A stretch of 57,365 bases of DNA, counting the filler, from Stramenopiles sp. TOSAG23-6 (taxonomy: Eukaryota): NCBI GenBank assembly GCA_900128565.1. It is 3 parts of 3 records of this genome, joined end to end, with 100 filler letters (N's around TTAATTAATTAA, not from the genome) between each part and the next. Parts side by side here need not be neighbours in the genome. Positions count along the whole stretch, not along the records: positions 38,396 to 57,365 come from LT636057.1; 2 more parts are not named here. One strand, written 5' to 3'. The position numbers were made by a program, and so were the translations under genes. Below, in pieces: positions 9,601 through 57,176 of the stretch. Every line of letters starts with the position of its first letter. The stretch's first letter is position 1. The notes under the pieces are model-generated. The model worked only from the letters and a program-made list of their open reading frames with translations, was not told where the DNA came from and did no database searches.

Positions 9601-12600
9601 CGACATCATTCCATGTCGCTCCACGATCTCTTGTAATCGAAGCGAGATTGTTAAAATACATCCTATTATCCCACTCTTCTGCCACAGATCTTTTATCATG
9701 ATGAATTTCAACATCAGCTTTTGGGAAGAATTCGTGTTCAGTAATCTTGTGAAGACCAACTAGCTTCCCACTAGGAGTATCAGAGAGAGCTTTATTGACC
9801 AATTTGTTATAGACATTATTCTTTTGAAGAGCTTCCTTTGTTTCAGTCCGCAAACCATCAATTGGTGACCAATATGGAACAAGTAATTCGGGCGAATCTG
9901 AATCTTTTATATCGTTTTCGACAGCGAATGGACATTCGATAAGTGCAAAATCATAAGATCGAATGCTGCCAAATGGGATGTTGAGTGTCACAATTTCATA
10001 TTCACAAGAGGATGGAACAGCTGGTACATTAAAGAATGGAGCTTTAGGAGTATATGAGTCACATCCAGGGTCGTACTGTTTATGGGTTTCCATCAATTTA
10101 CAGTAATTTTCAACATAATTATCACAATCAACTGCGTCGCTGTACGTTGCAGCAGCGCTAATGCATGTTTGATGCTGACAAGGTGTACCGAATTTATCTG
10201 CACTAAAAGCAGAGTAAGGCTGAATGAAAGGCTCAAGTCTGTGATTTTTACAAAAGCCACAGCCTGTGAAATCTTTTCCAAAGGAACCTTCAGCAATAAA
10301 CGTTTGTTCATCCGAATAGCTCTGACATTTTCCTGAAGCAGAAACATTCATGCAACACATTTGACATTCTTTTCCAGGGTTAGGACACACGAAATTCGAT
10401 TCTATGTAAGTACAATCCTCCGAGCACCCAGATGCTGGATTGCCCCCGTCATCGCATCTCTCTCCATATGTTACTACTCCATCACCACATACACTGAGAT
10501 TGCGACAAGCGTCGGATTCCCAAGCCCCTTCATCATTACAAAAGTCAATGTAGCTTTCTGCACACTGCAAAATATTTTCTACATAAAGAGATCCTTTTTC
10601 CTTTTCACACTTCGATTTCATTTTTGCTAGAACAGAACCATCTACAATCACCAATTTGGAATCTTTTTCGGGTTTATCTACCAAAGTTCCATTTTTTTTC
10701 ATCTCTTCAAAATGCCAGGAATCTTCGTTTGGTCTAACGAATCCTTGTGTTGCACTTTCTCTAAGTACACTTTTATGGAAAATTTCACAACTCCCCTCAT
10801 TTGCATCAGAAACTGAAGTGCTAAAAACTTCAATACAAGAATCAAGTGTACATGGATCTACTTTGTCGCTTCTTGTTAACCAATTTTTATCAAATGAGCA
10901 ACTGTCAAGACATCCAGGGTCCTTGGGATTTGCTTTACAGTAAGTGTAAATGGAATCAACACACATCTCTTCACTGTGATTCTCATGCTCATCTGTATCG
11001 CCTAGACTCAAGTTTGTGTCATGTTCATATTGACAATCAAGTAAATCACAATACATTTTCAAACCTGGGTCTTCTTTTTGATCTTTACTTCGAGAATACT
11101 TATTCAAACAGTCACCTCCTTTATTATTTATGTTCCCATCATCTTTCACGTTGTTTTCTTCTCCAGCATTTGGTTTTGGTGATGGCGTTGGTGTTTTCGT
11201 GTTTGGTTGTTCTGCAAGCATACGCTTATGCTCCATATGATTCCATTTGTATAACATTCGACGATGTTTCTGCTTAGTTTGTCTCTCGGCAGCTATCAGA
11301 AAGCACGAATCATCTTCCATACAACGCTTTGCTTCTGGCAAGCATTTTTTTGCACTGTCATTGGATCTCGAACTTTTGACTAAAGTGCATAGTGCATAAC
11401 ACTTTCCGAAAGCTATTGTTTCTTTTGAGCACGTCTTACTTGCATCATGAAAACATTCGAAATCATCAAAAGAATCACCTTGTTTGTTGCATATTTTTTC
11501 GCATTCAAAATCCAACTCTGTTTCAGATTTAGGATCGCTGGTTGCTGGCATATTATTATTTGGAAAGTCTAAGCCACCATCAGGTTCTTCAACATAACAT
11601 GGCTTGCACTGTCTGGAGATACAACCAAAGAAATCATCCCAATTACCACCTTGTTCTGTTTTATCTCTGAATTCAGGAATAGACGTCATGCACGCACTTA
11701 CGTGACAAGTATCTTCGTTGCAACTTTCTGGGCTACCTACTGGACAGCAACTAAAGTTTAGGGCTTTTGCAAGTGAATCGGCACGTGATGTATCCGCACC
11801 TCCAAATTCTTTGTTCTTTTGATCATTAATACAAGTTTTCAGTGCCCTTGCTACAGGGAGAAGCCTACTGTCTTCCACACTGAGTAGCTCAAGCCAATGA
11901 AATTCACCAAGACATTCAGCTTCATCGTTACGATTAAATTCCATACAACTTGCATACTGATCAGGACACCATTGTTTGGCTTTGTCCTTTGATGGCATAA
12001 TCGTGTTCATAAAATTACAACATCCTGACCCGCATTTATCTAACTTACTTTCACACTTCCGATCTTGTTTCATTAGTTCAATCCAGTCATTTGTTGATCC
12101 ACGGTTTCTATCAAAAGAATTAAATCCTAACCTTCTTCCTTTTTTATTTTTGGATATACTTTCCAAACGTCGATGTCCAACTTCCTCCTTGGGTTGAAGA
12201 TCGCTTTCTTTTGTTTTATCGAGTTCAATTTCTACAGTTTTTAACGATGCAAGATTCTTCACTTTAGTATGCAAACAAGCAGGATGTATTGTGAAAAAAA
12301 ATATTTTACAATTTTTTTGTTAGGTACAAAGTTTTGCACAAAAACAAATATTTTACATTCAATTTTGAAAACGTACATCAGATCTACATGTTTTGAGTTT
12401 AAAGGATTCAAAGATATTCCAGCCATAATGACCACATTTTTCGTTTTGACAAACACTTTTATCTGTAAATGCACACTCTGAACTATCGAAATTATAATCG
12501 CCTCGAGCTACTGTTTTCATAAAGCGAGAGCAACCAGTTGGCGTACATGAATTGTCCTTTTTACAAAATTGTTGAACAGCGTGAGAGCACACAGGCCCTG

Positions 12601-17587: not shown

Positions 17588-19049
17588 TCAGGCTAAAGCA
17601 GGCCAATCCGTCGAGCTTACAATTGAAGTCTTTTGCGAAGTGTCTCTTTTCTTTTCGAGTAATTTTCTTTGTCTATTTTGCTTTGTACTTTCTTTCGCTC
17701 GACTCCGCTGTTGCGAGACATCTTCCACCATTTTAGAAAACTTTTCTTTGGTACTTTCATCTTTTTCTAGTTTTTCTACTGATTGCAACAGATTAGTTGC
17801 TTTAGCGTAAGCACCAATTTCTAAAAGTTTCGGTATATTTAACATTGCCAATTGAGTTTTGACGACGCCACTTAATCTAACAGAATCGACAAATTTTGGA
17901 TTTAGTTTAATAGCATCATCCAATAGAATCTCCGCTCCCAGTAAATCATCTTCAGATATCTTCTGTGTTGCTAACTTCACCAATTGTGTTACAGCAGAGT
18001 TAGCCGATGATTCAAATGTATATATTGTCAAAAGACACGAAATTACAAAAAAAACGTTAGGTATAAAATTTCGTATGAAAAAATAAATAAATTTGAAATT
18101 GAAATTGAAAAAAAAATAAAACATACATTCTTCAATTGAGAATGATTTGGTGACAGAGATAAACCACCAAGAGCTGATAAAGCTGCTTCAATCAAATCAC
18201 CTCTACTGAAAGCGTCGTTACTACGATTCACAAAATCATTTAATTCTATTTCCCAATCGTGGCGAAGTGTCTGCGAAAGTTTTACCACAGCCTTGAATAC
18301 ATCAAATGTACCATCAGGATTAATAATTCCAATACAACTCATTTTGATTCTTTTACCTATTGCTTTTCCCATCTCCCTCCGCTTCAATGCATATATAATA
18401 GGGGTATCGTGATCTTTTGAGTATTGAATAATTTCACTAACACACTTATCAAGACCGGAAGAACCCTCATCAATATTTGTACTAACAATCAACATACGAA
18501 GTTTTCCATTCTTGGCACAACGGTGAACTTCTCTCATACCAAGTACAATTCTTTTTTTCTTTGAATTTATTGTCGATTTTGAACTTAATCTTGCTCGTTC
18601 ATGAAAAAAAAACACCTTTTGTAAAAGTTCGATGACCAATTTGTTTAATTCTTGTGATAATTTTTGTTTTACATATTCACGAACGCCCAAAATATTAGGC
18701 GTTCGAGAAATATGTTTTTCAATAGATGAAAGTTTTGAGTATATATTTGAACCAGATACTTTTTCAAGGACATTTTTAGCATTCATTGTTTCCGTATTTT
18801 GAGTATCTTTGGGATCTTTGGGATCTTTGGGTAAAATGTCATTCTTCTCATTCGCGCAAATAATTTCATCTGAAGATTGTTTTGTGTTTACATTTTCATT
18901 ACTATTTGTATCTTTGCTCATACGATTATTACGAGTTTCTTCTTTCTTCTTCATATTCTGTTTCAACTGTTTCCTTCTCTGAGCTTTCTTTTTTGACTCC
19001 TTTTGTTTCCTTTCGATATTTTGTGCTTCCTCAATGGCAAGTATTTGTA
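17588..19049 (-). CDS. SECISBP2: SECIS-binding protein 2-like (L7Ae domain) with TPR-like tail; 5'-truncated by gap; exons 19049-18127 and 18019-17588
   Basis: REYVKQKLS...KKRIVLGMREV...GLDKCVSEII...PIIYALKRREMGKAIGK matches the SBP2 RNA-binding region. Confidence 0.8.
18020..18126 (-). mobile_element. Introner-like repeat intron, GT...AT, 107 nt
   Basis: aat|GTATGTTTTA...TTTATACCTAAC...ACAATATAT|aca ttt gaa. Joins two overlapping out-of-frame ORFs; there is no AG in the intron. Confidence 0.75.
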
Positions 19050-19122
19050 ATGTATTGTGAAAAAATATTTAAAAAAAAAATCGTTAGGTACAAAATTTCG
19101 TACGAAAAATAAATTCGAAATT
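19050..19122 (-). mobile_element. 3' part of an introner-like intron, cut by the assembly gap
   Basis: TTCGTACGAAATTTTGTACCTAAC...CACAATACAT directly upstream of the SBP2 exon. Confidence 0.8.
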
Positions 19123-19222
19123 NNNNNNNNNNNNNNNNNNNNNNNNNNNNNNNNNNNNNNNNNNNNTTAATTAATTAANNNNNNNNNNNNNNNNNNNNNN
19201 NNNNNNNNNNNNNNNNNNNNNN
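19123..19222. other. Artificial 100-nt scaffold linker
   Basis: Ns flanking TTAATTAATTAA (stops in all six frames). Confidence 0.95.
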
Positions 19223-19300
19223 ATATTTCAAAAANAAATCGTTAGGTACAAAATTTCGTACGAAAAAAAAATTCGAAATTGAAAGAAAAATAAAACATAC
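19223..19300 (-). mobile_element. 5' part of an introner-like intron, cut by the assembly gap
   Basis: cat|GTATGTTTTA...TTCGTACGAAATTTTGTACCTAAC. Confidence 0.8.
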
Positions 19301-20724: not shown

Positions 20725-23700
20725 ATGCTGTATTGCCATCATGATATGTATTTCTCATTAGCAATAGTTACAACAATATTGGCATTTGCTGGAAATTCTC
20801 GTGGAACTACTGAAATATTTGGTCCACATTTTACAGACAACTTATCTTCGGAAGAGACATCAACGTATAGAATAAATGGTTCTTATTTAGAGGAGCTGGA
20901 CGAATCATCTAATAGAATGTGTTATAGTGAATTGTCTTCAAATGGTATTGATATTGTTCCTTCAAGTAGATTTGATTATCTATTACAGGAACGATTACGT
21001 TTCCTAGGAAAGAAACGAGTAAAAGACCTGAAAGATCCAGCTGTAGCATCTTTGCCGAATGTAAACGTGATTTCCCCCAAAGTATATCCTTTGTGGTTAG
21101 AATTGTCAGTACCTTTAAGAAAAAAGATGTTATCTGCCGGTGATGGTGATCGAGATGGAAAGAATAAGAATTTCCCTATGAAACCTATACTATCTCAGTT
21201 ACGTGAAAGGTACGATGTGAGAGAGTTATTTCAAGGTGGAAGTCATGGCGAAGTTTGGCGAGCTATCAAAAGTGTTTATAACCATGAAAATCATTCAGAC
21301 AATTACACCAAAGATAAAGCAAGAAATGCTGAACATGTAAAAGAAATATCATTTATACTCAAACGAATGTTTCTAGAAAATGTATGTCTTTAACATGAAT
21401 TTTAATTTGTTTTATAGAAAATTTTATACCTAACAAATTTCGAATTTCAAATATTTCCCCAAAAAACATGGAGAGTATGTAAGACTTGCAGGATTAAGAG
21501 AGATCTATTTTGGTGAATTGCTCAAGGGAAAGCCACACATTGCAAGATTTGTAGAATTCTTTGAAACAAATAGTTTTGAAGAAAAATGTAATGCAGACCC
21601 AATTAATAAAAATACCAACAATCAAAATACAAACAATCCTAATAAAACAAATACAAACAATCCTAATAAAACAAATACAAACAATCCTAATAAAACAGAT
21701 ACAAACAATCCTAATAAAACAGATACAAACAATCCTAATAAAACAAATACAAACAATCCTAATAAAACAGATGAAAAAACAAAATCAGATTTGTGGCTAG
21801 TATTTCATGATGAAGGGAGATCTCTTCGAGATTTTTTATATAGTCGTCATGAGTTAAGCAGTGGTGCCGTGTATGTATGTTTTATTTTTTTTTCAATTTC
21901 GAATTTATTTTTCATACGAAATTTTGTACCTAACGGGTTTTTTTGAAATAGTTTTCCAAAATACATGAACCATCATCTTTATGGCGGGAACTCCGAACGG
22001 GTAAAGGTGGTTTAAATGTTCTTCGAGGTATTTGGTTACAAATTACCGAAGGCGTTGCACTTTTACACCAAATGGATATCACGCATCGCGATTTGAAACC
22101 TTCAAATCTTATTATTTCTCTACCCGAAGATGTCTGTTTTATTTTTTTTCAAATTCTACTTTTTTTTTCGTAGGAAATTTTGTACCTAACAATTATTTTT
22201 TGAAATATTTTTCCAAAATACATGGTTCAAAACCTATAGTAAAAATAGCAGATTTTTCATCTGCCGTGAATGGTCATTCTTTGAAGTTTCTGTATGGAAT
22301 GAAAGGACCAAGTCAAGATGAAGAAACTGTTGAATATCAGCCTCCAGAAGTTTTATTCTCTATTGATATTTCAGATACATATAAAGAAGACGAAACCACA
22401 AAACAATATGATGAAACCACAAAAAAATATGAAAAGAATAAACAGGAAATGAAAAGTGGTTCACCATACTTTAGTGATAATCCAAAAACATATGATTTAT
22501 GGACTCTCGGAGTTATTTTCCTTGAAATGATTTTAGGTACACAGCATGTTTTTGCCGTAAGTGCGAGGACATTTGCTAAACTAGATCATAAAATGAGACA
22601 AGAGAAAAGATCAGATGCTGAACGAAGACAGCTTCTAATACTCACTGGCCTTGCGGAATGGTGTGTGTTCCCAGAACCAAATGCATCATCTTCTGAATAT
22701 AATACAATGAAAGATAAAAACAAAATCTACCTTCCAAAATCGTGGTCATCCAATTATAAACAAAGTCATCATTCGAATAAATTTCATTCCCGGGTTAAAA
22801 CAAGTGGGACAGCTTTGATTAGTCAAGGTGAATGGTGCGGCCTTGAAGCATTTAATCGAACATTACATCGGCGAGATCCTCTCGCTGGTATGTACGTTTT
22901 CCTTTCATTTTTAATAGAAAATTTTGTTCCTAACGAATTTCAAACTACATCAGCGAGATCCTCTCGATGGTATTTACGTGTTCATTTTATTTTTTATAGA
23001 ACATTTTTTACCTAACAAATTTTAAACGTAAAACATATTGTTTCGTAATACATTGGTTTGGGATATGAAAGTCGATGGGCTGTGGATGTACGTTTTCAAA
23101 ATTGCTTTTTTTTTATTTTTTCATACGAAATTCTGTACCTAATGATTTTTTGTAAAATATATTTTTTTACAATGTATCTTTTGTGGCGGTTACTTCGATG
23201 GCATGCGTGGGATAGATTGCCGGTGGAACTTGTCCTTCAACATGCATTTTTTGTTGGTCCTTATACTTGTGATGCTGATGATGCGTGTACAGGTAAAGAA
23301 TTTGCATTACCTGTACGTTTTCATAAATAATTTCAAATTTATTTTTATTTTTCATACGAAATTGTGTACCTAAGATTTGTTTTTTTGAGATGCTTGTTTT
23401 CATCATGAATTTCAAATTTGTCATATTTTCCAAAATTCATGGTGAACGCGACGAATTTGTGGTAGCATTACAAAGCAATTCTCTTGATAATTTGAACCCA
23501 TCAAAATCTTTTATGGAGTCAGAAATTGGTACACGAAATCATCCGATTATTCCAGTACCATTAGGCAAGGAAAATACAGAAATAAATAAAAAAGTAGAAA
23601 AGGTAGATAAAATTTTTGAAGACTCATATAGGGACCGACCTATACAACCAGAAAAATTCTGTTGTGCTTCTTGTGGTCGTTGCTTTGATAGAGCCAAGAG

Positions 23701-25331
23701 GTACGTTTTCATGATGCATTTCAAAAACGTTTTTTATTTTTTTTTTTTTGTATGAAATTCCGTACCTAACAATTTTTTTTCTAAAATATTTTTTTATTAC
23801 ACATTTGTGACCGGCACGTTATTGCAAGACGCCATAATGAAGATAAAGATCTTCCGTCATATTGCTGGCATAAACATGAGCATAAAAAAGAAATGTTTTG
23901 GGAATGCTCCACAAATATAAAACGAAACGTAGGTGGTCTTGAGAATACTCGATTATATGGCTGGTGTGGAACGCCTGGACGTCGAAATTATGGCATGGAA
24001 GACTTTGCGTCTGTTGGCTACTTAAATATAAAAAACGTCGTATTTTCAAATGAAAACAAAGTTGATTGGTTCGCTTTGTTTGATGGGCACGGAGGTAATG
24101 GTACTGCTTCATGGAATGCTGGCTTATATAATGATAGAAGTAATAATGTAGATAATGAATATTTAGGAAAAGAGGATGATACGGTCAATAAACACAGTCA
24201 AAATCTTTCTAAAACAAACCATGGTTTACACGTACATCTTGCTGCTACAGTAGCTAATTTTTTATTACTCCCGAGCAGTATTTTAAATACAAGTGTTGAT
24301 GATATTTCAGATTTGAGTGAAAATTCAATGGAATATTTGAATGATGTGAATGAAATTCATGAAATAACAGAACAACACAAGGGTCGCGTTTGGTGGGAGA
24401 AGGAACTTCTTGAAGATGCCATCAGTGAAGCATTTGATGCAGCTGATGAAGAAATATTGAATATGGTGGAGAATGAAAATAATGATGAAATAAATGTACC
24501 TCAGATTATAGGAAAGTCTGGATCTACTGCAACTATGTATGTTTTATTTTTTTTCAAATTCGAGTTTTTTTTCGTACGAAATTTTGTACCTAACAAAAAA
24601 CCATTTGAAATATTTTTCCAAAATACATATTACTAATGGGTTCTGAAACTTTAATGATAGGAAATGTTGGTGATTCGACTGCTATTTTATGTTGTGATGA
24701 AAATGATGAACCTATTGTTTTAAGCGAAGACCATTTACCCAGTCTACCGTCTGAACGATTACGTATTGAAAGTATCCCTGGTGGTCATGTACGTTTTCAT
24801 GATGAATTTCGAATTTATTTTTCATACGAAATTTTGTACCTAACGAATTTCGAATGTTTGAAATATTTTTTTTAATGCATGTTCATTGTCCTTCACTATC
24901 TGATATACATCATGGTTTTGGAACTTGTCGAGTTCAAGGGCAATTAGCGGGTACATTTTTATCATTAATTTCAATTTTGTTTAGTAGAAAAATTCCGTTT
25001 CTAACAAATTTCGAATGTAATATATTTTCACAAAAGATCAGTCTCACGATCACTTGGAGATTCCTCTTTGAAGCCTTACGTCTCTTCCTCTGCGTTTACT
25101 AGTCAATATGATTTCAAGGGATATGAAGAGTTTGCTATTATAGCTAGTGATGGACTATGGGAATCGCTATCTTTTAAACAAGCTGTAAGTCTTGTGCGTG
25201 ATTCTTTTTATGAAACGAGTCATCTCCGAACTGGTGAAACCTTATTTGAGGGGGCAGCAAGAAGGTTAGTTGAAGAAGCATACTTTAGAGATAGTGGAGA
25301 TAATATTGCAGCTTTAGTTATAGCTGTGTAA
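20725..25331 (+). CDS. Protein kinase - C2H2 zinc finger - PP2C phosphatase fusion, ~1191 aa, 11 exons
   Basis: After removing 10 family introns: GGSHGEVWRA, FILKR, HRDLKPSN, IADFSSA, YQPPE, YDLWTLG; CASC-x12-H-x5-H; GRRNYGMED, LFDGHGG, SGSTAT, NVGDS, GQLAVSRSLGD, IASDGLWE, DNI. Exon lengths sum to 3576 nt, a multiple of 3. Confidence 0.88.
21382..21469 (+). mobile_element. Introner-like intron, GT...AT, 88 nt
   Basis: aat|GTATGT...TATACCTAAC...AAAAACAT|gga. An in-frame GAG 6 nt downstream is an alternative acceptor. Confidence 0.75.
21625..21770 (+). repeat. Coding tandem repeat, 24 bp x ~6 (TNNPNKT[N/D])
   Basis: Repeated aatacaaacaatcctaataaaaca inside the kinase domain. Confidence 0.95.
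21875..21966 (+). mobile_element. Introner-like intron, GT...AT, 92 nt
   Basis: tat|GTATGTTTTA...TTGTACCTAAC...CCAAAATACAT|gaa, in frame to HRDLKPSN. An internal TAG 15 nt upstream is also in frame. Confidence 0.8.
22132..22223 (+). mobile_element. Introner-like intron, GT...AT, 92 nt
   Basis: gat|GTCTGTTTTA...CCAAAATACAT|ggt links HRDLKPSN to IADFS. No AG is in phase with this donor before DFS. Confidence 0.85.
22892..23053 (+). mobile_element. Introner-like intron, GT...AT, 162 nt, with internal duplication
   Basis: ggt at|GTACGT...TAATACAT|t ggt gives RDPLAGIGLGYESRWA. Confidence 0.75.
23088..23177 (+). mobile_element. Introner-like intron, GT...AT, 90 nt
   Basis: gat|GTACGT...TGTACCTAAT...ACAATGTAT|ctt. 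No AG inside. Gives WAVDLLWRLLRW..DR (kinase subdomain XI). Confidence 0.8.
23313..23440 (+). mobile_element. Introner-like intron, GT...AT, 128 nt, composite
   Basis: cct|GTACGT...CCAAAATTCAT|ggt. Includes a second 5'-half copy from about 23389. Confidence 0.7.
23701..23804 (+). mobile_element. Introner-like intron, GT...AT, 104 nt
   Basis: ag|GTACGT...CGTACCTAAC...TTACACAT|t restores exact C2H2 spacing. Confidence 0.85.
24537..24628 (+). mobile_element. Introner-like intron, GT...AT, 92 nt
   Basis: at|GTATGT...CCAAAATACAT|a gives the PP2C motif SGSTATILLMGSETLMIGNVGDS. Confidence 0.88.
24789..24880 (+). mobile_element. Introner-like intron, GT...AT, 92 nt
   Basis: cat|GTACGTTTTCAT...TAATGCAT|gtt. 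No AG in the intron; in frame to RVQGQLA. Confidence 0.85.
24951..25041 (+). mobile_element. Diverged family intron ending in canonical CAG, 91 nt
   Basis: g|GTACAT...TTTCTAAC...CACAAAAGATCAG|tc gives GQLAVSRSLGD. Confidence 0.8.
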
Positions 25332-27089: not shown

Positions 27090-27832
27090 TCACTTTTCTT
27101 TTGGTTTAAAATAAAGGTAATAAAGAGCTATACCACCCCACATTAATAGAAGAAAAATAACAAGCGAGTTATATAAAAAATATGTCAAATTCGAAATTCG
27201 TTAGGTACGGAATTTGGTACGAAAAAAAAAATGAAATGTATGATGAAAACGTACATAATATACCAGAATTTAGACGTGAAGCCCCCAAAATATTTTCCCT
27301 TTGATTTTTTATTTCCTCGCTTCTTTGAAGGTTTTGAAGGGTTTACATCGACGGCCACAGAAATTGGATTTTCTACTTCATTCTTTTGATTATTTTCTTT
27401 TTTTGATCCTTTTGATTTTTTACGGCGTCGTTTTTTCTTACGTCCTTTTTTGGGGACTTTTTCGATTTTTTCTGTCTTCTTTGAGTCTTTTGAGTCTTGT
27501 GGTAACGAAGTATGTTCTCCATGTTGTGGACTGTCTGGAGCATGATCGTGACTGTTTCTGAGCCAAACTTCAGAAGAATCTAAACCAACAGCAATTTTGT
27601 TCTCTTTTATCCTGGTGCTTTCTGCAACATCAGGATTAACCACCTCGTGAGCTTCCACTGCTACTTTGTTTTTGTTGTCTTCAACTCGAACGTCACTCTT
27701 TTCTGTTGGTTCTGTGGTAGATATCGCTGATTTTGCAACTGGAGTAGCACTTTCCTCTTGTACGGGCATAGTTGATTCTAAAGTGTCTGAATTATCTTTA
27801 CGGCGGGAAAACGCTCTCTTCAGCTTTTTCAT
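27090..27832 (-). CDS. Lys-rich tail-anchored membrane protein, ~214 aa; exons 27832-27255 and ~27156-27090
   Basis: Removing the family intron yields a C-terminal TM segment KFWYIIFLLLMWGGIALYYLYFKPKEK. Confidence 0.6.
27157..27254 (-). mobile_element. Introner-like intron, probably GT...AT, 98 nt (acceptor uncertain)
   Basis: at|GTACGTTTTCATC...CCGTACCTAAC; 3' end diverged. GTTAT|t gives the TM frame and there is no nearby in-phase AG. Confidence 0.65.
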
Positions 27833-38295: not shown

Positions 38296-38395
38296 NNNNN
38301 NNNNNNNNNNNNNNNNNNNNNNNNNNNNNNNNNNNNNNNTTAATTAATTAANNNNNNNNNNNNNNNNNNNNNNNNNNNNNNNNNNNNNNNNNNNN
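38296..38395. other. Artificial 100-nt scaffold linker
   Basis: Ns flanking TTAATTAATTAA. Confidence 0.95.
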
Positions 38396-38449
38396 TTTGT
38401 ACCTAACAAATTTTAGTTTTTTTTTTTGAAATATTTTTCCAAAATACAT
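38396..38449 (+). mobile_element. 3' part of an introner-like intron, cut by the gap
   Basis: TTTGTACCTAAC...GAAATATTTTTCCAAAATACAT. Confidence 0.8.
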
Positions 38450-39244
38450 GGAGTTTGTTGCAAATTTTAATGCAGCGTATGATGCTCTAGGTGCTGGAAC
38501 TGACGGTTTACTAAAAAAAGGACTAGAATTATCAATGCAAGTTCAACGTGGTGTAGTTACATTAGGTACTTCAATAATTGAGAAAAAACAAATTCGTAAA
38601 TCTGGGCCATTCAGGTATACATTATTATCTCAGTTGACTGACAATGATGCTTTGTTATTTACTCGTCCAGGACCTCTCGCTAAACTTGCACGCTTTATAT
38701 CATCCGCAAAACGTCAAGTTGATAAACGTTGGCGTGGGCGTAAAAATGTACCATGTACGTTTTCATCATGAATTTTAAATTTACTTTTTTTTTCATACGA
38801 AATTTTGTACTTAACAAAAATAATTTTGAATATTTTTTACAATACATATATTTTGTGTTGCCTGGATGATAATAATTCTAGATTTGTTATTGTTGGTATT
38901 GTTGGATCATCGAATCCAAATACAAATACCGATGCTGGTATGTCTCTAATCGATGTCTCCCAGAGTGTTCGTTTAGGGCGGGCTTTTGAACTTGCTGGGA
39001 AAGAAGTCAATGGTACGTTTTCATAATGAATTTCAATTATTTTTTTTCGTACAAAATTCCGTACCTAAAAAAAATTGTCAACCAAAAAAAAAATATTTTT
39101 TTTCACAATACATGTAGTGTTTCAGGAGAAGAGAATCAAATGCAAGAAGTATACGGTTTCGATAAAGCCGTAGCGACAGTACAGAAAAATGATGTTCAAG
39201 CATTTTTGTCAGTTTTGATGGAAATTCTTGAAGGTGTTCATTGA
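38450..39244 (+). CDS. CDC45: CDC45 C-terminal part, 5'-truncated; exons 38450-38754, 38848-39012, 39114-39244
   Basis: NFNAAYDAL...GLELSMQVQ...IIEKK...FRY...FTRPGPLAKLARF...PYILCCL...VIVG...GRAF...FD...DVQAFL follows the CDC45 C-terminal pattern. Confidence 0.8.
38755..38847 (+). mobile_element. Introner-like intron, GT...AT, 93 nt
   Basis: cca t|GTACGTTTTCATCATG...ACAATACAT|at. In-frame stop inside and no AG inside. Confidence 0.85.
39013..39113 (+). mobile_element. Introner-like intron, GT...AT, 101 nt
   Basis: aat g|GTACGT...CACAATACAT|gt, in frame. A CAG 12 nt downstream is also in phase. Confidence 0.7.
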
Positions 39245-41650: not shown

Positions 41651-43165
41651 ATGTCGCATCTTCCTGAACCTTCAGTTTGGGGTTTGAGTCCTCTCCATTG
41701 GACATTCACAAAACTATTTATAGTTCAATTGCATGCTTTAGAAGAGCCTGATCAATATCTAGACACACACTGGTTGTATGGTTGTCCTATAACACGAGTA
41801 CACATTTTTGGAACTATTGTTAGTGTCTCACAGAAATCGAAATTCTTGACATATGGTATAGATGATGGCACTGGTGTCGTAGATTGTCTTTTGTGGAAAC
41901 GAGATACAACTGAAATAAACTCGGATATCGTTTCTGATGAGGGAGACGAAAATAGTACTTTATGTTTGGGAGACTCTGTTTGTGTGTATGGAAGGTTACG
42001 AAGTGCGAAACCGCCTTACTCTCTTCTGCGAAGTATTACTATAGACTCTATATCAGTTATCCATGTACGTTTTCATCATGAATTTCGAATTTATTTTTTT
42101 GTACCAAATTTTGTACCTAACAAACTTCNAATTTTGGAAATATTTTTGCACAGCACATGACTTAAATTTAGAAGCCCACCATTGGCTTGAGGTTGTCGAT
42201 TTAATGCAAACAATATATCCACAGGGTTCATCACATTTCACAAATTGTATAAAAAGTAGAGTAAAGGAAGTAAACGTGAAAAGAAAAAAAATTCTCAAGT
42301 ACGTTTTGATCAAATTTTATTTTTTTTTACTCGAAAATTTCAAATTTGACCAAATTTTTATGATTTTCAAATTCGCCATATTTTTTTCACATGTAGTTCG
42401 GACACATCATCAACGTCTTCTGTCAAGACAGATAAAAATGAGTCGGCTTTTCTTGATGCTGTAAAGATGTATATACTCAACAATTTTGGTCCTTCTTCAA
42501 CGATTGTGTGGAGCTCAATGTACGTTTTTATTATGAAATTCTATTTTTTTTTCATACGAAATTTTGTACCTAACAAAAAACATTTTGAAAAATATTTTTT
42601 CATGTAACATATTTTCCAATCCTAAACTTCGTGATATTGCTCAACGCCAAGCAATGCATCAAACTAAAGATAAATCAATGATTTCAGCACTTGTACATAA
42701 AATATTTATACGAGCAACTAATCAACTCATCTCTCAGAACTTTTGGTATTTATCGAATAAAGAATGTGACGAATATCGACTTTTAAGTCACAAACTTGCC
42801 TTAGCCAATGAAGTTCGTTTTTTGTATAAATATAACGGTGTGGATCAAAATAATGGCGAAAGGGCTTCATCTTATGCAAATGGATGGCAAACGAAGGATT
42901 CAAACAAAACATTATTGTCAAAATCAGAACTAATTGAAAGTCTTGGTCGCGTGTACGTTTTCATCTCAAATTTCAAATTTGGTTTTTTTTTTATACACAA
43001 TTTTGTACCTAATGAATTTTACAAAATATATATATATATATTTCACAATGCATACCTCATTTGGCGACATTGAGCCAAAATTGCATTATAGAAAAAATAA
43101 ACCAGTTATTATGGGAAGGTGTCATTTATGAGGAAAATTTTGAATTGTACGGATGTGTTAACTAA
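41651..43165 (+). CDS. STN1: STN1-like CST subunit (OB fold plus winged-helix-like C-terminus), ~376 aa, 5 exons
   Basis: PITRVHIFGTIV...YGIDDGTGVVDCLLW...LGDSVCVYGRL...DLNLEAHHW; C-terminal LLWEGVIYE. Exons 41651-42064, 42159-42298, 42397-42519, 42611-42952, 43054-43165. Confidence 0.8.
42065..42158 (+). mobile_element. Introner-like intron, GT...AT, 94 nt
   Basis: cat|GTACGTTTTCATCATG...CAGCACAT|gac. The CAG 5 nt upstream is out of frame. Confidence 0.85.
42299..42396 (+). mobile_element. Diverged family intron ending in canonical TAG, 98 nt
   Basis: aa|GTACGTTTT...TTCACATGTAG|t. Using the family-type CAT end would give an immediate stop. Confidence 0.7.
42520..42610 (+). mobile_element. 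Introner-like intron, GT...AT, 91 nt
   Basis: at|GTACGT...TTGTACCTAAC...GTAACAT|a ttt. No AG in the intron or in the next ~55 nt. Confidence 0.8.
42953..43053 (+). mobile_element. Introner-like intron, GT...AT, 101 nt
   Basis: gt|GTACGTTTTCATC...CACAATGCAT|a opens the EGVIYE frame. An in-phase GAG lies ~20 nt downstream. Confidence 0.75.
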
Positions 43166-43222
43166 ACGAATGATGAAAATTAATTTCAACGTGTTTATAA
43201 AGAATACTTTTAAAAAAAAAAT

Positions 43223-49285: not shown

Positions 49286-49442
49286 ATTGTCCATCTTCAA
49301 AATGATGAGTCTAAACAATACGAGAATTATTAGATTATTGTCCATCTTCAAAATAATGAGTCTAAACAATCAATACGAGAATTATTAAATTATTGTCCGT
49401 CTTCAAAATAATGAGTCTAAACAATACGATAATTATTAGATT
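49286..49442. repeat. Tandem repeat, ~51-55 bp x 3, abutting the ATPase stop codon
   Basis: attgtccRtcttcaaaatRatgagtctaaacaat...aattattaRatt three times. Confidence 0.92.
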
Positions 49443-52400
49443 AGTAGTAGGTATTACGTTCCATCCAACATGGGTCCCGTGTAACTTGACCTGAAATAGG
49501 GTCAGTTTTCACCTTGGTCCCTTTTCGCATAATATATTTTCTAGTCTCGTCGTAGCAAAAAATAAACACGGAATATGGACATCCAGGGAACCAGTGGACC
49601 AACTTAATAGGACGAGTTCCAAGAGCTAAGCTTAATCCAGGTGTGTAACAAAGGAGCGCTCCAAGGATAGTCTCAAAAATAAGACCAAAGTTCATAGCTG
49701 GATTGTTCATACCTTGATGATACATAGAATTCATTCGTGTCTTGCAAATCACCAAATCAGCCCATTGTACGACAATAATGGAAATAAAATAGGCACACTG
49801 TGCATGATGAAGAGCTTCCTTTTGAACCATGCGACTGACTACATTCACACAAACACCATCACACACTTTTCCATCAATATCGTAACGAGATGCGGTCTTG
49901 TAATTGGTGTAATTGTGTTGAAATTTACCGGCGTCTATGATATCTTTCAACTTAGTAGGAACAGTCACATTCTTGATTATTATCTCGTTATTACTAACTT
50001 CGTATCCATCGAAATTGATATTCCAAAATTCAGGTTGATCATCCACACTAGCATCAATTTTATAGTCAGCTGCGTCAGTTCCTTTCCCAGGATAGTACTT
50101 TGCCTGGACATCAATCAAATTATACCACGCTTCGACCTGCATTTCTTTCGCTGTACCTGTTGTAGCTTCAGCTTCATTAACAACCTGGCAACGAGCGCGT
50201 CTACATGAACGCCATTCAGTAGTTTTTTGTCTGATATTAATAGCACAATCATCAGTGTCCATAACATTTTTCGTTTTCTTCATCTCCGCATCTCCGGTGT
50301 CACAGGAAGCAGAATTCAATTTAGTATATGGGGTGGTGCCGTCCATTTTCATTGTATTGACATGAAAATATGCTGGTGGTTCCACACTGAATGCAATTAG
50401 GGTTGCGACATCTTTGCTTAATCCAGGAACTTCCTGATCACTGGAGCCGACATCATAAGCAAACCATTCTTTCTTGAAAAAGGGGCTATTTCTACCATCG
50501 ACGTGAACGTAAGGTCGATATCCATTGTATTCCAAAGCTTCAAAAGAACGATTTGTTGCTACATCCTCACCATCGGTGAAAGAATCTCCACGGAGCGGCA
50601 AACAATCAGTAGGTTTGCCGTCTTCGTCTGTTGGGCATAATTTTTTTTTCAACCTATGAAGAGCACAATTACAAGTAGATGAGTATTCCGTACAATTATC
50701 ACAGTTTGTTGTTGCCAGTTTACTTGCTTCTTCAATGTCCTTGTTTGTTGGAATTTCTTTAAAGTCAGNTTCACTTTGAATTTTTTTCCAAGTACCGTGA
50801 CACCCTCCATCAGTTGTAGCTATACAGGTAGCTTCAGTCAACGAGCACTCAAGCAAGGCGGTTTTTGCAGTAGGTGTGTATTTGCAGAATTCTACATCAT
50901 ACAATTCGTGTCCAGGTTGTGTTTTGAAGTCCTTATCTTTCCAACCATTGAGAGTCGTATCCCAAGTAGCAGGTTTTGTAAACTGATTCCTAACTGACGA
51001 CAACTGACCAGGATATTCCAAACTTCCTACATTGGACGAAAAATTACGTATTGGAAAAGTGCACTGATCTACTGGACCATCCCAAAAAGGATAATTTCGG
51101 ATCAATTCTGTACTTGGCATAGTGTAAGTTACATTGGTTTTCGCTTCAGTCTCGCATTCAGCTTTGGTCACTGTAGATTCTTTCGGTCCAGCTGTTTCAT
51201 CATCCAATATAGCAGTTCCATCAACTCCAACTTTTTTATACAAGTGGCGATTTCCTTTGTACACGCATCCCCCAACGGTCACGCCCGCCCCCCCCGCAAC
51301 GGTCGCATCCCATTCAACACCTTGGTATTTCTCTTTTGGAAGCGCATTGCCAACAAGATTTCGAAATTGCACTTTACCTTTCGATAAATATTCCGATTCA
51401 TTTGCATATGGTTTACCTGCTACTTCAGATTTTACATCCATATTACAAAACATAGTACGTTTACCCCAATTATCAAATGCACCAAGTTCAGGAACGATAT
51501 GAGGTGGATAACCATAATCTTGCATAACAACAAACCATGTATAAAACCCAGCGATAGCTTGAATAACACCAATTTGAAGGTACGAAAAAACAACAAGTTT
51601 TTTTGTAACCAATGCATCTATCTCCGCATTACGAGGAGGACGTTTCATAATATCAGATTCAGGATCTTCCCACGCCATAGATATTGCTGGAACCATATCC
51701 GTTCCCAAATCTACACACAAGATTAAAACCGTGGATAAAGCAAGAGGCATTTGAACAGTCATAAACAAAAGAAAAGGTGCAATTTCAGGAATATTTGAGG
51801 ATAAAGTATATGCGATAGATTTCTTCAAATTATCAAAAATTAGTCTTCCTTCTTGAACACCAGCGACAATAGACGCGAAATTATCATCCAGTAAAATCAT
51901 ATCAGCTGCTTCCTTTGATACATCAGAACCCATGATTCCCATTGCAACACCGATATCAGCCTTTTTGAGTGCAGGAGCATCATTCACACCATCACCAGTG
52001 ACAGCTACAATTTCATCACGACGTTGGCAATTTTCTACAATAATCAACTTTTGTTGTGGAGATGTTCGCGCAAAAACAATTTGTGTGTGACCCAAAATAT
52101 CATCCCATACATCTTTGAACTTATCACAATCTTCTTTTCCAATTAATTCCCATCCTGGTACAACCATGGCTGGTGCAAGTACAGGATTAAACCATGGAAT
52201 AGGTTCTCCATTATTCATTCCAGGAATTACTTTCGGCTCGCAACCCTTTGTAAGTCCATGACGTTTATTAAATTTTTCGTAGTCTGAAGTTGTCGCAGGT
52301 CCTTTTTTCTTACCGCCGCGAATCATATCACCATCAATGATACCGACGTCTTGAGCAATAGCTTGCGCAGTCGTAGGATGATCTCCAGTAACCATAATAA

Positions 52401-54824
52401 CACGAATTCCAGCAGTTTTACAGAGTTTCACCGCACCTGGTACTTGAGGTCTAGCAGGATCAATCATAGCAAAAAGACCAAGGAAGTTAAGTGGTGTAAA
52501 TGAATCTTCGTGTGGTGGCATTTTTGGGTTTTGAGGGGCATTTCGGTCATTTCCAATTGGAAAGTTAGCGTTGTCTTCATCATACTCGAAATCTTTACCG
52601 TACTTTCGTGGAAGCTCAAGTTCACAAAAGCCAAGAACACGAAGACCATCTTCTGCGCATTGTTCCTGAAGAGCAATGATTTTCTCCTTTTCTGCTGCGT
52701 CGAAAGGAACAAGGTCAGCTTTACCAGAACCATTATCTTTCCAAATTTTATCGCACCTATTCCAAATTCTTTCTGGTGCTCCTTTCATCACAAGTAAAGA
52801 TGATTTCTTCTCATCATCCCAATGAATACCAACTTGGTATTTATTTTTAGAGTTAAAAGGTATTTGGGCAATTCGTGGATATTCTTCGTTGCATTTAGTC
52901 ATATAATTAGACAGAGCTCCTTCAGTATCCAAGTTACCGTCAGCGTCTTTAGAATTCATCATCTGTGCGAACTTAGCTAACGCAGATTCAGTAGCATCAC
53001 CAAGTGGTTTCCAATTATATTGTTTTTGTTTACGACCATCAATGTCGACGATAGTCATAAATGGTTTTGGACGACTGGTATCAGCGATACTTAGCGCAGG
53101 GTTATTTGGATCCGGTTTTTTATGGTATAATGTTGTATTATCCCATTTAACATTATTGCACAATGTGGCACAACGCAAGAGCTTGTCAAAGGTTCCTCTT
53201 TTTTTAATTGATGCAGCGGTAACAGTATCGGGTTTGTCAGCACGGGAACCAGTATCGGCCTGGTATGCACAATTATCAAATACAACTCGTTCAACAGTCA
53301 TTTATTGTGAAAACAAAAAAGTGTGAAAACATTTGTTAGGTAAAAAACAAATTACGAAAAAAACATTTAAAATTCGTAATGCAAACATACATCATATTTT
53401 GAGTCAAAGTTCCAGTTTTATCCGAGCAAATACAAGAAGTTGATCCGAGCGTTTCGACACCTTCAAGATTCTTTACGAGAACATTATTATTCGCCATTCG
53501 ATGGGCAGTTAATGCCATACACACAGTTACAGTCGCAAGTAAACCTTCAGGTACATTAGCAACAATAATTCCAATCATGAAAACAAGGTTTGTAATCATT
53601 TCTGTTTTGATGATAATCCAACCGAAAAGAAAAAATGAAATTCCCAAAATGAAAGCAATCGACGAAACTATAGTGACAAAGTGATGAATTTGTTTGTTAA
53701 TAGGCGTCTGTACAGTCTCTGTGACGGTTGTTAGAGAAGCAATACGACCCATAACAGTGTCATCACCCGTTGATACTACAATACATTTCATCGATCCTTT
53801 AACGACCTCCGTACCAAAGAATGCAAGATTTCGTGTTTCAAGAGGATTCTCATCAGTGCAAGAAGTTTCACGTTTTACGGGTTCAGCTTCACCAGTAAGC
53901 GATGCATTGTCAACTTCAACAGTTCCTGATACTGATAAAACACGGACATCAGCAGGTACTTTATTTCCAGCCTTCAACTTAATGATGTCTCCAGGGACGA
54001 GCATCGTTGCGTTAATTTCCTTAGGTTGGCCATCACGAATAACAATTGTTGTTGATGGAAGCATATTCTTAAAACTGTCCATAAGATTAGATGATTTTCG
54101 TTCCTGGCAATATCCAAAAACACCAGTGAGAAACACTACCGCAGCAAGAACTATACCTAAATAAAGATTATCTTGTTCTTTTTTCAAACCAAACCCAACG
54201 AAGCACAAAGCGGCACCACCCCATAGTAAAAGTGAAAAAAATCCCGTCATCTGCTCCATGAATTTGATGAATTCACTCTTTGTCTTTGGTGGAGTAAGCT
54301 TATTTTCACCATATTCATTGATTTTCTCGAACCACAACTGTTCACTAATTCCCTCATTCTTCGACTCCACTAACACGAAACCACCATCAGAAGTCATATC
54401 AAACTCAAAGTGACTTGCAAGATCATTTCTGACATCCCCAATGTCCATCGTATGCCATTTGAGCTTCAATTCCTTCTTCAAGTTCCCCAAATCCTCAACT
54501 TCTGCACCGCCAAAGCAAGGACAGGAGAAGTTTGCCTTATTCGAGGTTTTCGTATTTTCTTCTAACGATTTCGCCCCTGTTGAGTTGAAAAGATATAAAG
54601 TCAATGGTACACATAATGAGCTACATTGGTAAAGATAAAGAGTATAATTAAAAGCACTGATGTACAAAAGTTATGAGAGATAATTCATTCAAAAATATTT
54701 GAACACAAAGGCTGGAACACTTACTCGAATCAATCGTAGACACCATCCCTTTCTGTTTAACAGTTGCGCCAATAACAGCGATTTCCGACGACTGACTTCG
54801 CGAAACATTGATTCTATCACTCAT
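49441..54824 (-). CDS. Na+/K+-ATPase alpha subunit-like (P2C), ~1714 aa; exons 54824-54725, 54576-53391, 53299-49441
   Basis: VANVPEGLLATVTV, CSDKTGTLTQN|MMTV, MKGAPE, TGDGVNDAPAL, LKKSIAYTLSSNIPEI, C-terminal NTYY. Confidence 0.95.
53300..53390 (-). mobile_element. Introner-like intron, GT...AT, 91 nt
   Basis: atg at|GTATGT...TTTACCTAAC...CACAATAAAT|g act gtt. No AG in the intron; restores DKTGTLTQNMMTV. Confidence 0.92.
54577..54724 (-). other. Canonical GT-AG intron, 148 nt, unrelated to the family
   Basis: tcg a|GTAAGT...TCAACAG|gg; phases match. Confidence 0.85.
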
Positions 54825-55157
54825 CGTGGCCACTCCCGTAGAAAAAAACAGGAGAGTATATGACTCTCGACAATAATCTCTGGAAGCCCCCGACAATACC
54901 AAGTTATTGGCAGTGTTGGCTTTTGCCGAAAAGAAGACGACAAAGTGTAGTTTGCCCACCACCAGTCATTGGAAATGACATTGTTTGTCTTTTGTTGTTT
55001 GAATTTTTTTAAGTCAACAGGTTTGTGACGGCAGAAAAAGTTCTCTTTTTCTTTTTTGAGAGAGATCTGGAGACTTGAGATCTTGGATCTTACGTACTTC
55101 TTAATAGATCCTTTTTTCAATACATTTTTGAAATGCAATGCATACTTGACCAAAAAT

Positions 55158-57176
55158 ATGGATTATAAAGACCTTGTGGAAGGTGATGGAGAAGTTGTTA
55201 AAAGGGGTGATTTAGTGGAAGTTGATGCGGTTGGCGTAATTCTTGCAAAAGGAGAAACTTGTGATGCCAATTCAGCAGGAAAAAAAAGTCTAGGTAGTAC
55301 ATTCTGGTCCACTCGCCAACCAGGTAAAACTTGCTTTAAATATCGAGTAGGTGTAAACTCTGTCATTAGAGGATGGGATACTGGTATTATAGGAACAAAA
55401 TTGGGGGGTATACGTCGTTTGCGTATTCCTCCAAATATGGCTTACGGGGAAATAGGGTATCCAACTTGGTCAATACCACCTAAAGCATCACTCGAATACA
55501 CAATCGAAATACTTTCTATCAATGGAAAAAGATCAATTTCAAATACAAAAANATTCGATTGGTCAGATATAGATTCATTAGTTGGTCAATTTGATCGTAA
55601 TAATACGATACCAAAAACAGATATTCAAATTGGTTCTATTGTGAAAATACTATCAAGTACCCCTACTTCGAAGAATGAAGATGAAAGAACAGCTGAGAAA
55701 CTGGCAAGAGTAAAATCTATAGATTTAGATGCATTAATGGTATGCGTTGTATATATTAATAATAATGGGGAAACATGTAGTGATGAAGATGAGGAAGAAT
55801 GGTTATTTGAAGATTGCCTTCAAGTAGTTTTAGACGAAAAACAGGAAACCTCTAAAAAGAAATTAGATTCTTCAAACTCGACAATAAAAACAAATGATAC
55901 AATGAAACATGAAACATCCAAAAACAAATTAGACACTCTTTCAAAATCGATAATAAAACCAAATAATAAAACAAAACAAAAACAAAAGCAAATCTGTAAT
56001 TTGTGTGGTGAAGAAGCCAAAACTAAGCCATTAAGAAAATGTTCAGGTTGTGGTTTGGTATACTATTGCTCTGTTCAGCATCAAAAGAAAGATTGGAAAT
56101 TTCACAAACCTATGTGTTTAATTGAACAAAAGCGAAATGGAAAAAAGATAAAAAGAAAACATAATCAAAATTTGAATAAAAACATGTCATGTAGTGATAC
56201 ACAAAGATTGTATGAAAGCCAAATGACAGGAACATTTCGCTGGCCTGCAGGTACAAAATTTACACCTCTCCCAATTACATTTGACCATGCCTTGGCATTG
56301 AAATGTATTAAACAAAAGGGTGCAGGATGGGGACAATTTTGTAATGTACGTTTTATGCAATCGCAAAAGACGGACGGAAAATTGATACTGGAACCATCCC
56401 TCATTGATGGAATAAGTTTCCCTATCACATTCCTGTATGCTATTACTCTCGATGAAGTTAAAAATGAATCACCAATAGTATCTGGAGCGTTGATAAATAT
56501 TGCTGTTGTTGGTGCATCGGCAAAAACTGAAGAAAGAATTCTGCGAGAAACTAATTATTGGGAGGAAATTGGTCGAATTTTACCTTGTCAATTTAGGATA
56601 GTTTTTGTAGGGCTCGAAATTTTATGTGAGGGTGTATTTGATCACTCGAAACGTCATTTTAGTAGCAATAGAAAGTCTAAAGATTCATGTCATGATACAA
56701 ACAACATATCCTTTTCGACTTTTAAGGGAAGTTTGATTAATTTCCTTTCAAAAGAGAAAGAGTGTGGGAACTTTGATGATCCTGACTCATCGCACATTGT
56801 GATTGGTTTTAATACAGGTCTAGGAAGTGGTAATTCTGAGTTAATGGCTTCTTGGTTAGATGATCTTAATATGTTAATGGATAAAGATATTTTAAGTATC
56901 TTTACTTGCGCAAATCAACATGCAGATCTCTTTGGTGAAATCAATGTTATGAATATAATTGACGCAAACATAATTGCAAAACCGAGAAGGAATGCTTTCT
57001 CAGCATGTTCTGCTTACCATGCTCCAGGACAGCGCGAAAAAGCTAGTTGTGCAAATAGTTTTGTGTATGCCATTAAAGGTAGGAAAGGAGCAGGAATAAT
57101 AAGTGAGATGGAAATGAAACGACAACGTTACTCTGTAGCATTACTAGCAAAAGAAGTAAAAAAGAAATGGTCATAA
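55158..57176 (+). CDS. FKBP-type PPIase - MYND zinc finger - MSS51-like protein
   Basis: VIRGWDTGIIG...GGIRRLRIPPNMAYG (FKBP); CNLC...CSGCGLVYYCSVQHQKKDWKFHKPMC (MYND); IAVVGAS...GFNTG (MSS51-like C-terminus). Confidence 0.85.
   Translation: MDYKDLVEGDGEVVKRGDLVEVDAVGVILAKGETCDANSAGKKSLGSTFWSTRQPGKTCFKYRVGVNSVIRGWDTGIIGTKLGGIRRLRIPPNMAYGEIGYPTWSIPPKASLEYTIEILSINGKRSISNTKXFDWSDIDSLVGQFDRNNTIPKTDIQIGSIVKILSSTPTSKNEDERTAEKLARVKSIDLDALMVCVVYINNNGETCSDEDEEEWLFEDCLQVVLDEKQETSKKKLDSSNSTIKTNDTMKHETSKNKLDTLSKSIIKPNNKTKQKQKQICNLCGEEAKTKPLRKCSGCGLVYYCSVQHQKKDWKFHKPMCLIEQKRNGKKIKRKHNQNLNKNMSCSDTQRLYESQMTGTFRWPAGTKFTPLPITFDHALALKCIKQKGAGWGQFCNVRFMQSQKTDGKLILEPSLIDGISFPITFLYAITLDEVKNESPIVSGALINIAVVGASAKTEERILRETNYWEEIGRILPCQFRIVFVGLEILCEGVFDHSKRHFSSNRKSKDSCHDTNNISFSTFKGSLINFLSKEKECGNFDDPDSSHIVIGFNTGLGSGNSELMASWLDDLNMLMDKDILSIFTCANQHADLFGEINVMNIIDANIIAKPRRNAFSACSAYHAPGQREKASCANSFVYAIKGRKGAGIISEMEMKRQRYSVALLAKEVKKKWS

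Follow-up and report, generated by a model that had tools for sequence, protein, structure and literature searches.

A repeated family of short introns with probable GT-AT ends in a P2C-type ATPase gene and other genes of a marine stramenopile

Few signals of eukaryotic genes are as constant as the terminal AG of introns. Introns with GT-AT ends are known as rare exceptions; seven U12-type cases, for which productive U12-type splicing is possible, and one conserved U2-type intron, that of DGCR2 in human and mouse, with an optimal 5′ splice site and pyrimidine tract, are described by Sheth (2006; PMC1557818). Introners are known from Micromonas, Aureococcus and a wide range of aquatic protists; they bring splice signals of their own and draw one splice site from a target duplication, according to a review (PMC11282704) and to Gozashti (2022, PMC9860276; 2025, PMC12130899), and the review describes the same target-duplication logic for introners and for the tunicate Fritillaria borealis. 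The introns of this tunicate resemble miniature inverted-repeat transposable elements, are recent, are removed by the U2-type machinery and have a non-AG 3′ end (AC or AT) that stems from an exonic target repeat (PMC11282704; abstract of PMC13326754). Repeated introns with direct repeats at their borders and terminal inverted repeats, on which standard annotation failed, have been described in another marine protist, Amoebophrya (PMC7789003, in the sections concerned). Here we report on a 57,365-nucleotide (nt) stretch of DNA from Stramenopiles sp. TOSAG23-6 (the window, along which all positions are given), in which a gene for an ATPase of the P2C (Na/K-type) group is interrupted by a 91-nt insert at 53300-53390. 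This insert is likely to be a spliceosome-like intron with GT..AT as its excision borders; it belongs to a family of similar elements that ends in AT throughout, i.e., with the final G of the intron replaced by U.

The terminal pair is the same as in the U12-type GT-AT introns of human, mouse and Physarum; these introns differ from the family described here, which lacks the motif RTATCCTT and has its branch motif 33-45 nt from the end. For U12-type introns RTATCCTT is given as the 5′ motif and 9-12 nt as the distance of the branch motif from the 3′ end in the corresponding part of the Physarum preprint. The DGCR2 intron likewise combines a good 5′ site with an AT end, but it is a single exception, whereas here the combination is the rule for a whole family. 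Like introners, the elements are many near-identical short introns in sense orientation in unrelated genes; known introner families are reported with canonical or otherwise accepted ends, the 2025 curation expecting 3′ AG and AC in the part of its text that deals with ends (PMC12130899), whereas here every copy ends in AT. In Fritillaria, as described in the passages cited above, the 5′ end is also non-canonical (AG-AC, AG-AT) and the ends are diverse, while in the window the 5′ site is GTAYGT and the last base alone departs from the rule. The introns of Amoebophrya have no clear terminal signature and 8-20-nt inverted repeats in hairpins according to the same sections of PMC7789003, in contrast to the uniform ends, the strong branch motif and the lack of a supported hairpin seen here. 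The full-text literature searched yielded no report of GT-AT introners or of non-canonical splicing in MAST-type stramenopiles, although supplements could list relevant families. Two papers on MAST genomes and one on Incisomonas contain no such report by word search of the text available (PMC5778133, with "intron" twice and "splic" not at all; PMC8163842; PMC12614181), and the words "MAST" and "stramenopile" are absent from the main text of two introner surveys (PMC9860276; PMC12130899), whose supplementary family lists lie outside that statement. Mobile introns with non-canonical ends were already known; what would be new is a canonical 5′ site together with a uniform AT end in a mobile-intron family of a stramenopile.

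Judged from its sequence, the host gene is a P2C (Na/K-, H/K-type) ATPase, with the DKTGTLTQN-x-MTV loop and the E1-E2, N/P and C-terminal domains. Pfam recognizes Cation_ATPase_N and E1-E2_ATPase in the half upstream of the insert (exon 2) and Cation_ATPase, Hydrolase and Cation_ATPase_C in the downstream half (exon 3), both halves being of the P-type ATPase kind, and the best relatives of solved structure (PDB) are Na/K-ATPase alpha chains (E ~1e-110). The open reading frames (ORFs) on the minus strand around the insert span 53336-54670 upstream and 49441-53301 downstream, the latter with 1286 codons, and the three exons joined (Table 1) give a coding sequence (CDS) of 5145 nt for 1714 amino acids (aa) with no internal stop. 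The insert itself begins with GTATGT, finishes with AAAT and contains no AG; it is 91 nt long (3x30+1), the upstream frame reaches a stop within it, and a stop codon stands immediately before the downstream frame. After the branch motif no AG occurs until 14 nt past the 3′ border, in the downstream exon, and this AG is out of frame. DKTGT is present in 111 of the 119 homologs examined, all 111 have N-x-M-T at fixed spacing behind it, and QNMMTV is identical to the joined product of the window in 11 homologs. The invariant M and T of the phosphorylation loop sit on either side of the junction, and their spacing, which holds in every one of the 111 homologs, is restored when exactly these 91 nt are taken out; the mRNA would therefore have to lack exactly these 91 nt. 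A first-pass annotation of this DNA had noted an insert free of AG, with an in-frame stop and a length that is not a multiple of three, followed by an exonic AG out of phase, in an otherwise intact gene whose P2C pattern is regained when the 91 nt are taken out; all of this is borne out by the present data. The observation of the insert is confirmed, and it is more than chance, given the frame restoration in 13 of 13 evaluable members of the family treated below.

Among public records the closest one, P0001 (labelled eukprot:GSMAST32...), models the same ATPase gene and illustrates what such an insert does to annotation. This model imposes GT-AG: it uses GTTTGC and the first exonic AG, and consequently reads 21 frame-shifted residues that correspond to the off-frame ORF at 53091-53297. 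It also omits many short segments elsewhere and has 1098 aa instead of 1714 aa. The remaining close homologs, among them a record labelled INCI... and oomycete proteins, are long pumps of stramenopile type (1496-1775 aa). Label and homology point to a heterotrophic marine stramenopile of the MAST-3 kind as the organism. In the window the Cation_ATPase_C match is split in two stretches (49441-51700, minus strand), and the extra length is common to the long stramenopile relatives. A further relative (P0122, from jgi, 354 aa on a 4702-nt contig) is 83% identical over the middle of the pump, and its ORF ends differ from the exon borders in the window; from these ORF limits, the intron positions of the ATPase may differ between close relatives.

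The insert is a member of a high-copy introner family and not a lone oddity, so that the finding is larger than first stated. A profile built from 11 copies and run against the window (nhmmer) gave 26 matches, 22 of them with E<0.001, and 11 of these 22 were outside the model. The 22 significant copies are spread over at least eight gene regions in 57 kb; the elements are ~90-110 nt long and of the same build. On the two strands of the window ACCTAAC occurs 18 times where about 7 occurrences are expected, and 16 of them lie within family copies. In an alignment of 16 full copies with 6-nt flanks (A1), the mean column identity is 60%, yet the first two bases are GT and the last two AT without exception. 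At the 5′ site position +3 is A and position +5 is G in 15 copies each and +6 is T in all 16, GTAYGT being present in 14; a C directly precedes the terminal AT in 12, and two partial copies likewise end in ACAT. All aligned copies have a CTAA or TTAA-type branch motif followed by a T-rich tract, at the distance given above in the 14 copies in which the motif was correctly placed by script. The copies are 66-84% identical to the family consensus, and the ATPase insert, at 72%, is among the more diverged ones. That GT, branch motif and AT are nevertheless invariant points to selection on these signals.

Excision as GT..AT joins the dominant flanking frames in all 13 evaluable copies (P = 6e-7 against an expectation of 1/3), and in 16/16 if three weak cases are included. 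With the ends that had initially been picked by hand the count was 12/13; the exception (18126) was resolved by the A1 end 4 nt upstream, which is another AT. The strand of the copy is that of the long flanking ORFs in each of the 16 aligned copies, and 13 of them have their first AG 3′ of the branch motif out of phase. In the composite at 22892-23053 the frame is kept only if the entire 162 nt are removed as GT..AT. With many similar copies in unrelated genes, sense orientation and frame-neutral removal, the elements would by all appearances constitute an introner family. Pfam found no families in the host genes of the register-informative copies, so that homology does not fix their junctions. 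Three copies, at 42065-42158, 21875-21966 and 24951-25038, have an AG near but apart from the AT end and are natural test cases. At 22869-23053 (plus strand) a micro-exon of 23 nt has been tandemly duplicated together with its intron copy.

Where exactly the cut falls is best judged from the family. In the ATPase copy four registers can be drawn, 53299-53389 (TA..TG), 53300-53390 (GT..AT), 53301-53391 (TG..AA) and 53302-53392 (AT..AA); none of them is AT-AC and a shift by 2 nt gives AT..AA, as the first-pass annotation had maintained. Its further claim of a real GT-AT intron is supported: it is backed by breaks in RNA contigs (see below) and by 15 further copies with the same ends, while the register comes from the family and is not fixed at this locus. 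The GT-AT register is favoured because both ends are invariant in that cut across 16 copies and, provided that the insert is excised, this comparison makes it quite probable. Excision in another register, i.e., as AT...AA here and AT...AC in most copies, or as TG...CA, seems unlikely, although all four registers of the ATPase copy yield an identical mRNA. An exonic AT precedes the GT in 12/16 copies and a C stands at -3 in 12/16, and a 2-nt shift therefore produces mostly AT..AC; AT-AC and AT-AA ends are documented for U12-type introns and AT-AC ends also for U2-type introns (PMC1557818). After such a shift, however, both ends turn heterogeneous, with a 5′ pair that is AT in 12/16 and TG, AG, GT or GG in the others and a 3′ pair that is a mixture of AC, AA, GC, AG, GT and AT, as opposed to 16/16 GT and 16/16 AT in the unshifted cut; a shift by 1 nt gives T..CA in ~12/16 copies. 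Furthermore, the 5′ motif would be ATGTAYGT, which matches neither RTATCCTT nor ATAAGT-type sites. The branch motif of U12-type introns lies ~10-26 nt from the 3′ end, and that of the family is too distant for this type. We therefore rejected the AT-AC register, and also a U12-type intron as such, since RTATCCTT is replaced by GTAYGTTT with G instead of C at +5 in 15/16 copies and the branch motif is misplaced.

By the yeast-type consensus, GTAYGT would be expected to base-pair with U1 and U6. Compared with a U2-type intron, the extended 5′ GT consensus, the branch motif and the T-rich tract are all present, and the 3′ AG is missing, with AT in 16/16. Apart from the altered last base, the elements are built like introns of the major spliceosome, from which we infer a U2-type mechanism; the element would work like a U2-type intron rather than being a standard member of that class.

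Parts of the ATPase gene are contained in 20 sequencing runs, 12 of which are recorded as RNA. Contigs of three poly(A) metatranscriptomes (X4 from one study, X9 and X11 from another) and of an independent DNA run (X3) were aligned to 38400-57365. X4, X9 and X11 each have one contig that skips the canonical intron 1 of the ATPase gene (148 nt, from 54575 to 54724). No contig of X3 skips it, and DNA contig 13 of that run is continuous through it; the RNA contigs are, therefore, spliced transcripts of this organism. Record 18 of X4 (359 nt) matches 53390-53616 with its letters 133-359 and has 132 letters left over, and record 5 of X11 (494 nt) matches 52967-53298 with its letters 163-494 and has 162 letters left over. 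These two contigs lose colinearity exactly at the two borders of the insert, with three ambiguous letters left to the other side, as in a split alignment. By contrast, DNA record 12 of X3 covers 52927-53955 without gaps at ~1% divergence and keeps the insert at the same length. The break coordinates thus indirectly show that the 91 nt are absent from the RNA contigs. As a check the first-pass annotation had proposed a complementary DNA or peptide across the junction; the joined peptide was seen in no transcript-derived protein searched. Among those of 61-195 aa there was one match in five candidates, at 45% identity; among proteins of 192-613 aa the best was P0122, which stops short of the junction; and among those of 707-2251 aa there was only P0001, the faulty model of the same gene. 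A scan of metagenome contigs found three loci of 41-46% identity, all from other organisms and with no family copies (nhmmer).

Taken together, the restored frames, the uniform sense strand, the persistence of GT, branch motif and AT even where copies have diverged, the intact ORFs and the RNA contigs argue for spliced introns. An insert that is not removed at all, i.e., a recent transposon that breaks this allele while the insert-free RNA contigs derive from other strains, is highly improbable. Deletion of an exact insertion does restore the frame regardless of splicing, X4 and X11 are unlike X3 in a nearby haplotype block, and introners usually show presence/absence polymorphism. Some 20 broken genes would, however, be needed in the window, with all 16 aligned insertions in sense, and the three signals would have to remain unchanged in copies as diverged as these; moreover, the ATPase ORFs show no other damage along their 1714 codons, and the window and the independent DNA contig, despite ~1% divergence, both retain the insert at one length. 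It is scarcely credible that an error of sequencing or assembly has turned AG into AT, or that the insert is read unspliced, be it by a ribosomal hop from ATG to ATG or as two polypeptides. One T-to-G change would create a canonical site, an in-frame ATG stands at both borders and the downstream ORF begins with ATG; but 16/16 aligned and two partial copies end in AT, and the RNA contigs break at the borders of the insert. Ribosomal hops of 91 nt are not known to us from any nuclear gene, and none of the 111 homologs is a P-type ATPase split in the phosphorylation loop. Sequencing error, ribosomal hop and split protein were rejected on these grounds.

The structure of the elements bears on whether they are removed by the spliceosome at all. 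A repeat-guided, non-spliceosomal removal, like that of the nonconventional introns of euglenids or the route proposed for the introners of Amoebophrya, would be favoured by the short inverted repeats at the ends of the consensus (exonic AT + GTAY against RTAC + AT, with 78% of cells pairing), by the direct AT repeats that border most copies and by the non-canonical borders. This complementarity shows no covariation, since 262 of 500 shuffles pair as well, and RNAalifold predicted no consensus pair for the family. Single-copy folds have z-scores of -0.32 (the ATPase insert), 0.17, -2.67 and -1.10 and share no structure. The borders are also uniform, and GTAYGT, a CTAAC-type branch motif and a T-rich tract are hallmarks of spliceosomal introns, so we consider repeat-guided removal very unlikely. 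The uniform borders and the lack of a consensus structure also do not fit a euglenid-type nonconventional intron, for which variable borders and a stable structure that brings the ends together are typical.

Several points weigh against excision as GT..AT by the major spliceosome. Non-AG 3′ sites are very rare among U2-type introns (Sheth, 2006; PMC1557818, in the sections noted above). The ATG duplicated at both borders allows four registers for a single joined product, and the register is thus unreadable from the ATPase copy, in which, as in the consensus, another AT 4 nt upstream of the end (CAAT) is passed over for no reason that the model supplies. Frame restoration alone is also expected from any exact insertion with target duplication. 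The Rfam scan of the window gave no matches, and so no small nuclear RNA match. On the side of the transcripts, the 53298/53390 joint is not among the best 15 of 192 joint rows, and removal from RNA is deduced from the break coordinates. As the haplotype of X4 and X11 is unlike that of X3 at 50313-50334, an insert-free allele is possible in those samples. The high depth of X9 on bins with family copies (2,300-3,200) indicates unspliced RNA or DNA in that library. On the same bins (38400-39032, 42198-42830) the summed contig depth of X4 and X11 is below 4 and that of X3 is ~8,600-11,300, against ~7 on single-copy bins. This pattern hints at efficient removal and at thousands of copies; contig depth proves nothing, and it is not used as evidence here. 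Small indels and single-nucleotide polymorphisms at 50313-50334 and 50247, within the large insert of the pump, separate the environmental populations into the haplotype groups X4+X11 and X9+X3.

Taking GT..AT excision by the major spliceosome as the preferred reading, we propose that the 91 nt would be removed precisely from the ATPase pre-mRNA, linking ...QNM(M) to TV..., and that a strong 5′ site (GTAYGT), a branch motif similar to ACCTAAC and a T-rich tract would come with every family copy. In this view a 2-bp AT target duplication, or insertion at A|T, gave rise to the terminal AT, which would then have been co-opted as 3′ splice site. The exon ends in AT at positions -2 and -1 in 12 of the 16 copies, including all eight copies that are at least 76% identical to the consensus; the four without this AT (23701, 24951, 39013 and 42953) are among the more diverged (66-73%). 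Because the eight copies nearest the consensus are all preceded by exonic AT, the terminal AT probably derives from such a duplication. Candidate transposon marks in the window are the AT both before and at the end in the same 12 copies and an inverted match of only 4-6 nt, without covariation; an autonomous element was not seen in the window. We infer a transposon origin for the family. The U2-type spliceosome of the lineage would accept AU at the 3′ splice site in addition to the AG of ordinary introns, for example that of intron 1 in the ATPase gene. Whether the major spliceosome of this marine stramenopile lineage in fact uses AU regularly as a 3′ splice site, and whether a mobile family that brings its own GTAYGT and branch site and takes its 3′ end from a 2-bp AT duplication is now found in thousands of genes and outnumbers GT-AG introns, seems to us an evenly balanced question.

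If the AU reading is true, the lineage is a natural system with U instead of G as the last intron base. Textbook 5′ and branch sites with only the last base altered isolate in nature one variable of 3′ splice-site recognition, namely how the first base of the intron contacts the last and how U2AF-type factors read AG. The family also adds a clean case of mobile introns that draw a splice site from target duplication, even if that site is non-canonical. In practical terms, gene finders restricted to GT-AG mis-model such genes, as in P0001, which jumps to the next AG, and the contigs of the window end inside family copies. In genomes of this kind, artefacts of annotation may in part account for low gene counts or apparent pseudogenes.

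Table 1. Positions of the ATPase gene parts, the signals of the 91-nt insert and the further family copies along the window.
Feature	Position	Strand	Remarks
ATPase exon 1	54725..54824	-	ATG at 54824-54822; sequence read, joined CDS open, RNA contigs join 54575/54724
ATPase intron 1	54577..54724	-	canonical GTAAGT...ACAG, 148 nt; internal control for splicing
ATPase exon 2	53391..54576	-	N-terminal, actuator and M1-M4 parts; ends with DKTGTLTQNM and the AT of the next Met codon
ATPase exon 3	49441..53299	-	N and P domains, C-terminal membrane domain with large insert; stop 49441-49443
91-nt insert, probable intron (favoured register GT...AT)	53300..53390	-	anatomy, homology, family alignment, RNA contig breaks at 53390 and 53298
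5′ splice site GTATGT	53385..53390	-	sequence and family alignment
Branch-point-like motif ACCTAAC	53335..53341	-	~36 nt before 3′ end of insert
Terminal AT (putative 3′ splice site)	53300..53301	-	T-rich tract before; AT in 16/16 aligned copies
Family copy, 93 nt, GT..AT	12284..12376	-	connects ORFs of 348 and 2871 codons
Family copy, 107 nt, GT..AT	18020..18126	-	end from A1
Two family copies interrupted by spacer 19123-19235	19050..19300	-	motif and profile search
Family copy, 88 nt	21382..21469	+	profile, A1, frame test
Family copy, 92 nt	21875..21966	+	in-frame AG 15 nt before end
Family copy, 92 nt, 5′ GTCTGT	22132..22223	+	between kinase motifs HRDLKPSN and next exon
Composite, two family copies around duplicated 23-nt micro-exon	22892..23053	+	second copy starts with TT, not GT
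Family copy, 90 nt, ends in TAT	23088..23177	+	profile, A1, frame test
Family copy, 104 nt	23701..23804	+	upstream exon ends in AG; mRNA would read register unambiguously
Family copy, 92 nt	24537..24628	+	profile, A1, frame test
Family copy, 92 nt	24789..24880	+	nearest to consensus, 84%
Diverged family copy, 88 nt, ends in GAT	24951..25038	+	in-frame CAG 3 nt downstream
Family copy, 3′ end unsettled	27176..27254	-	profile search
3′ part of family copy, directly after spacer 38296-38395	38395..38449	+	many contigs diverge just past 38449/38450
Family copy, 93 nt	38755..38847	+	profile, A1, frame test
Family copy, 101 nt	39013..39113	+	upstream exon ends in TG
Family copy, 94 nt	42065..42158	+	CAG 5 nt before end out of frame; AT end in frame
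Family copy, 91 nt	42520..42610	+	profile, A1, frame test
Family copy, 101 nt	42953..43053	+	upstream exon ends in GT

A scan of the window for ordinary GT..AG introns gave 38 candidates, almost all of them either antisense or in overlap with family copies, and intron 1 of the ATPase gene is the only convincing one; the tally in the window is therefore 22 significant family copies against one verified canonical intron. The window consists of three contigs placed one after another, and the order of genes on either side of a join is therefore meaningless. The spacers at 19123-19235 and 38296-38395 each consist of 44 N, TTAATTAATTAA and 44 N and have the appearance of an artificial contig join, the former with an additional 12-nt stretch and then a single N at 19235. 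Both fall inside copies of the intron family, as if the contigs terminated in the repeat. The distribution of the copies is very uneven, with at least 11 of them in 4.5 kb (20668-25100, plus strand), in a kinase-like gene and its neighbours. The DnaJ, DHHC, pyrophosphatase and FKBP-MYND genes near this cluster are each a single ORF.

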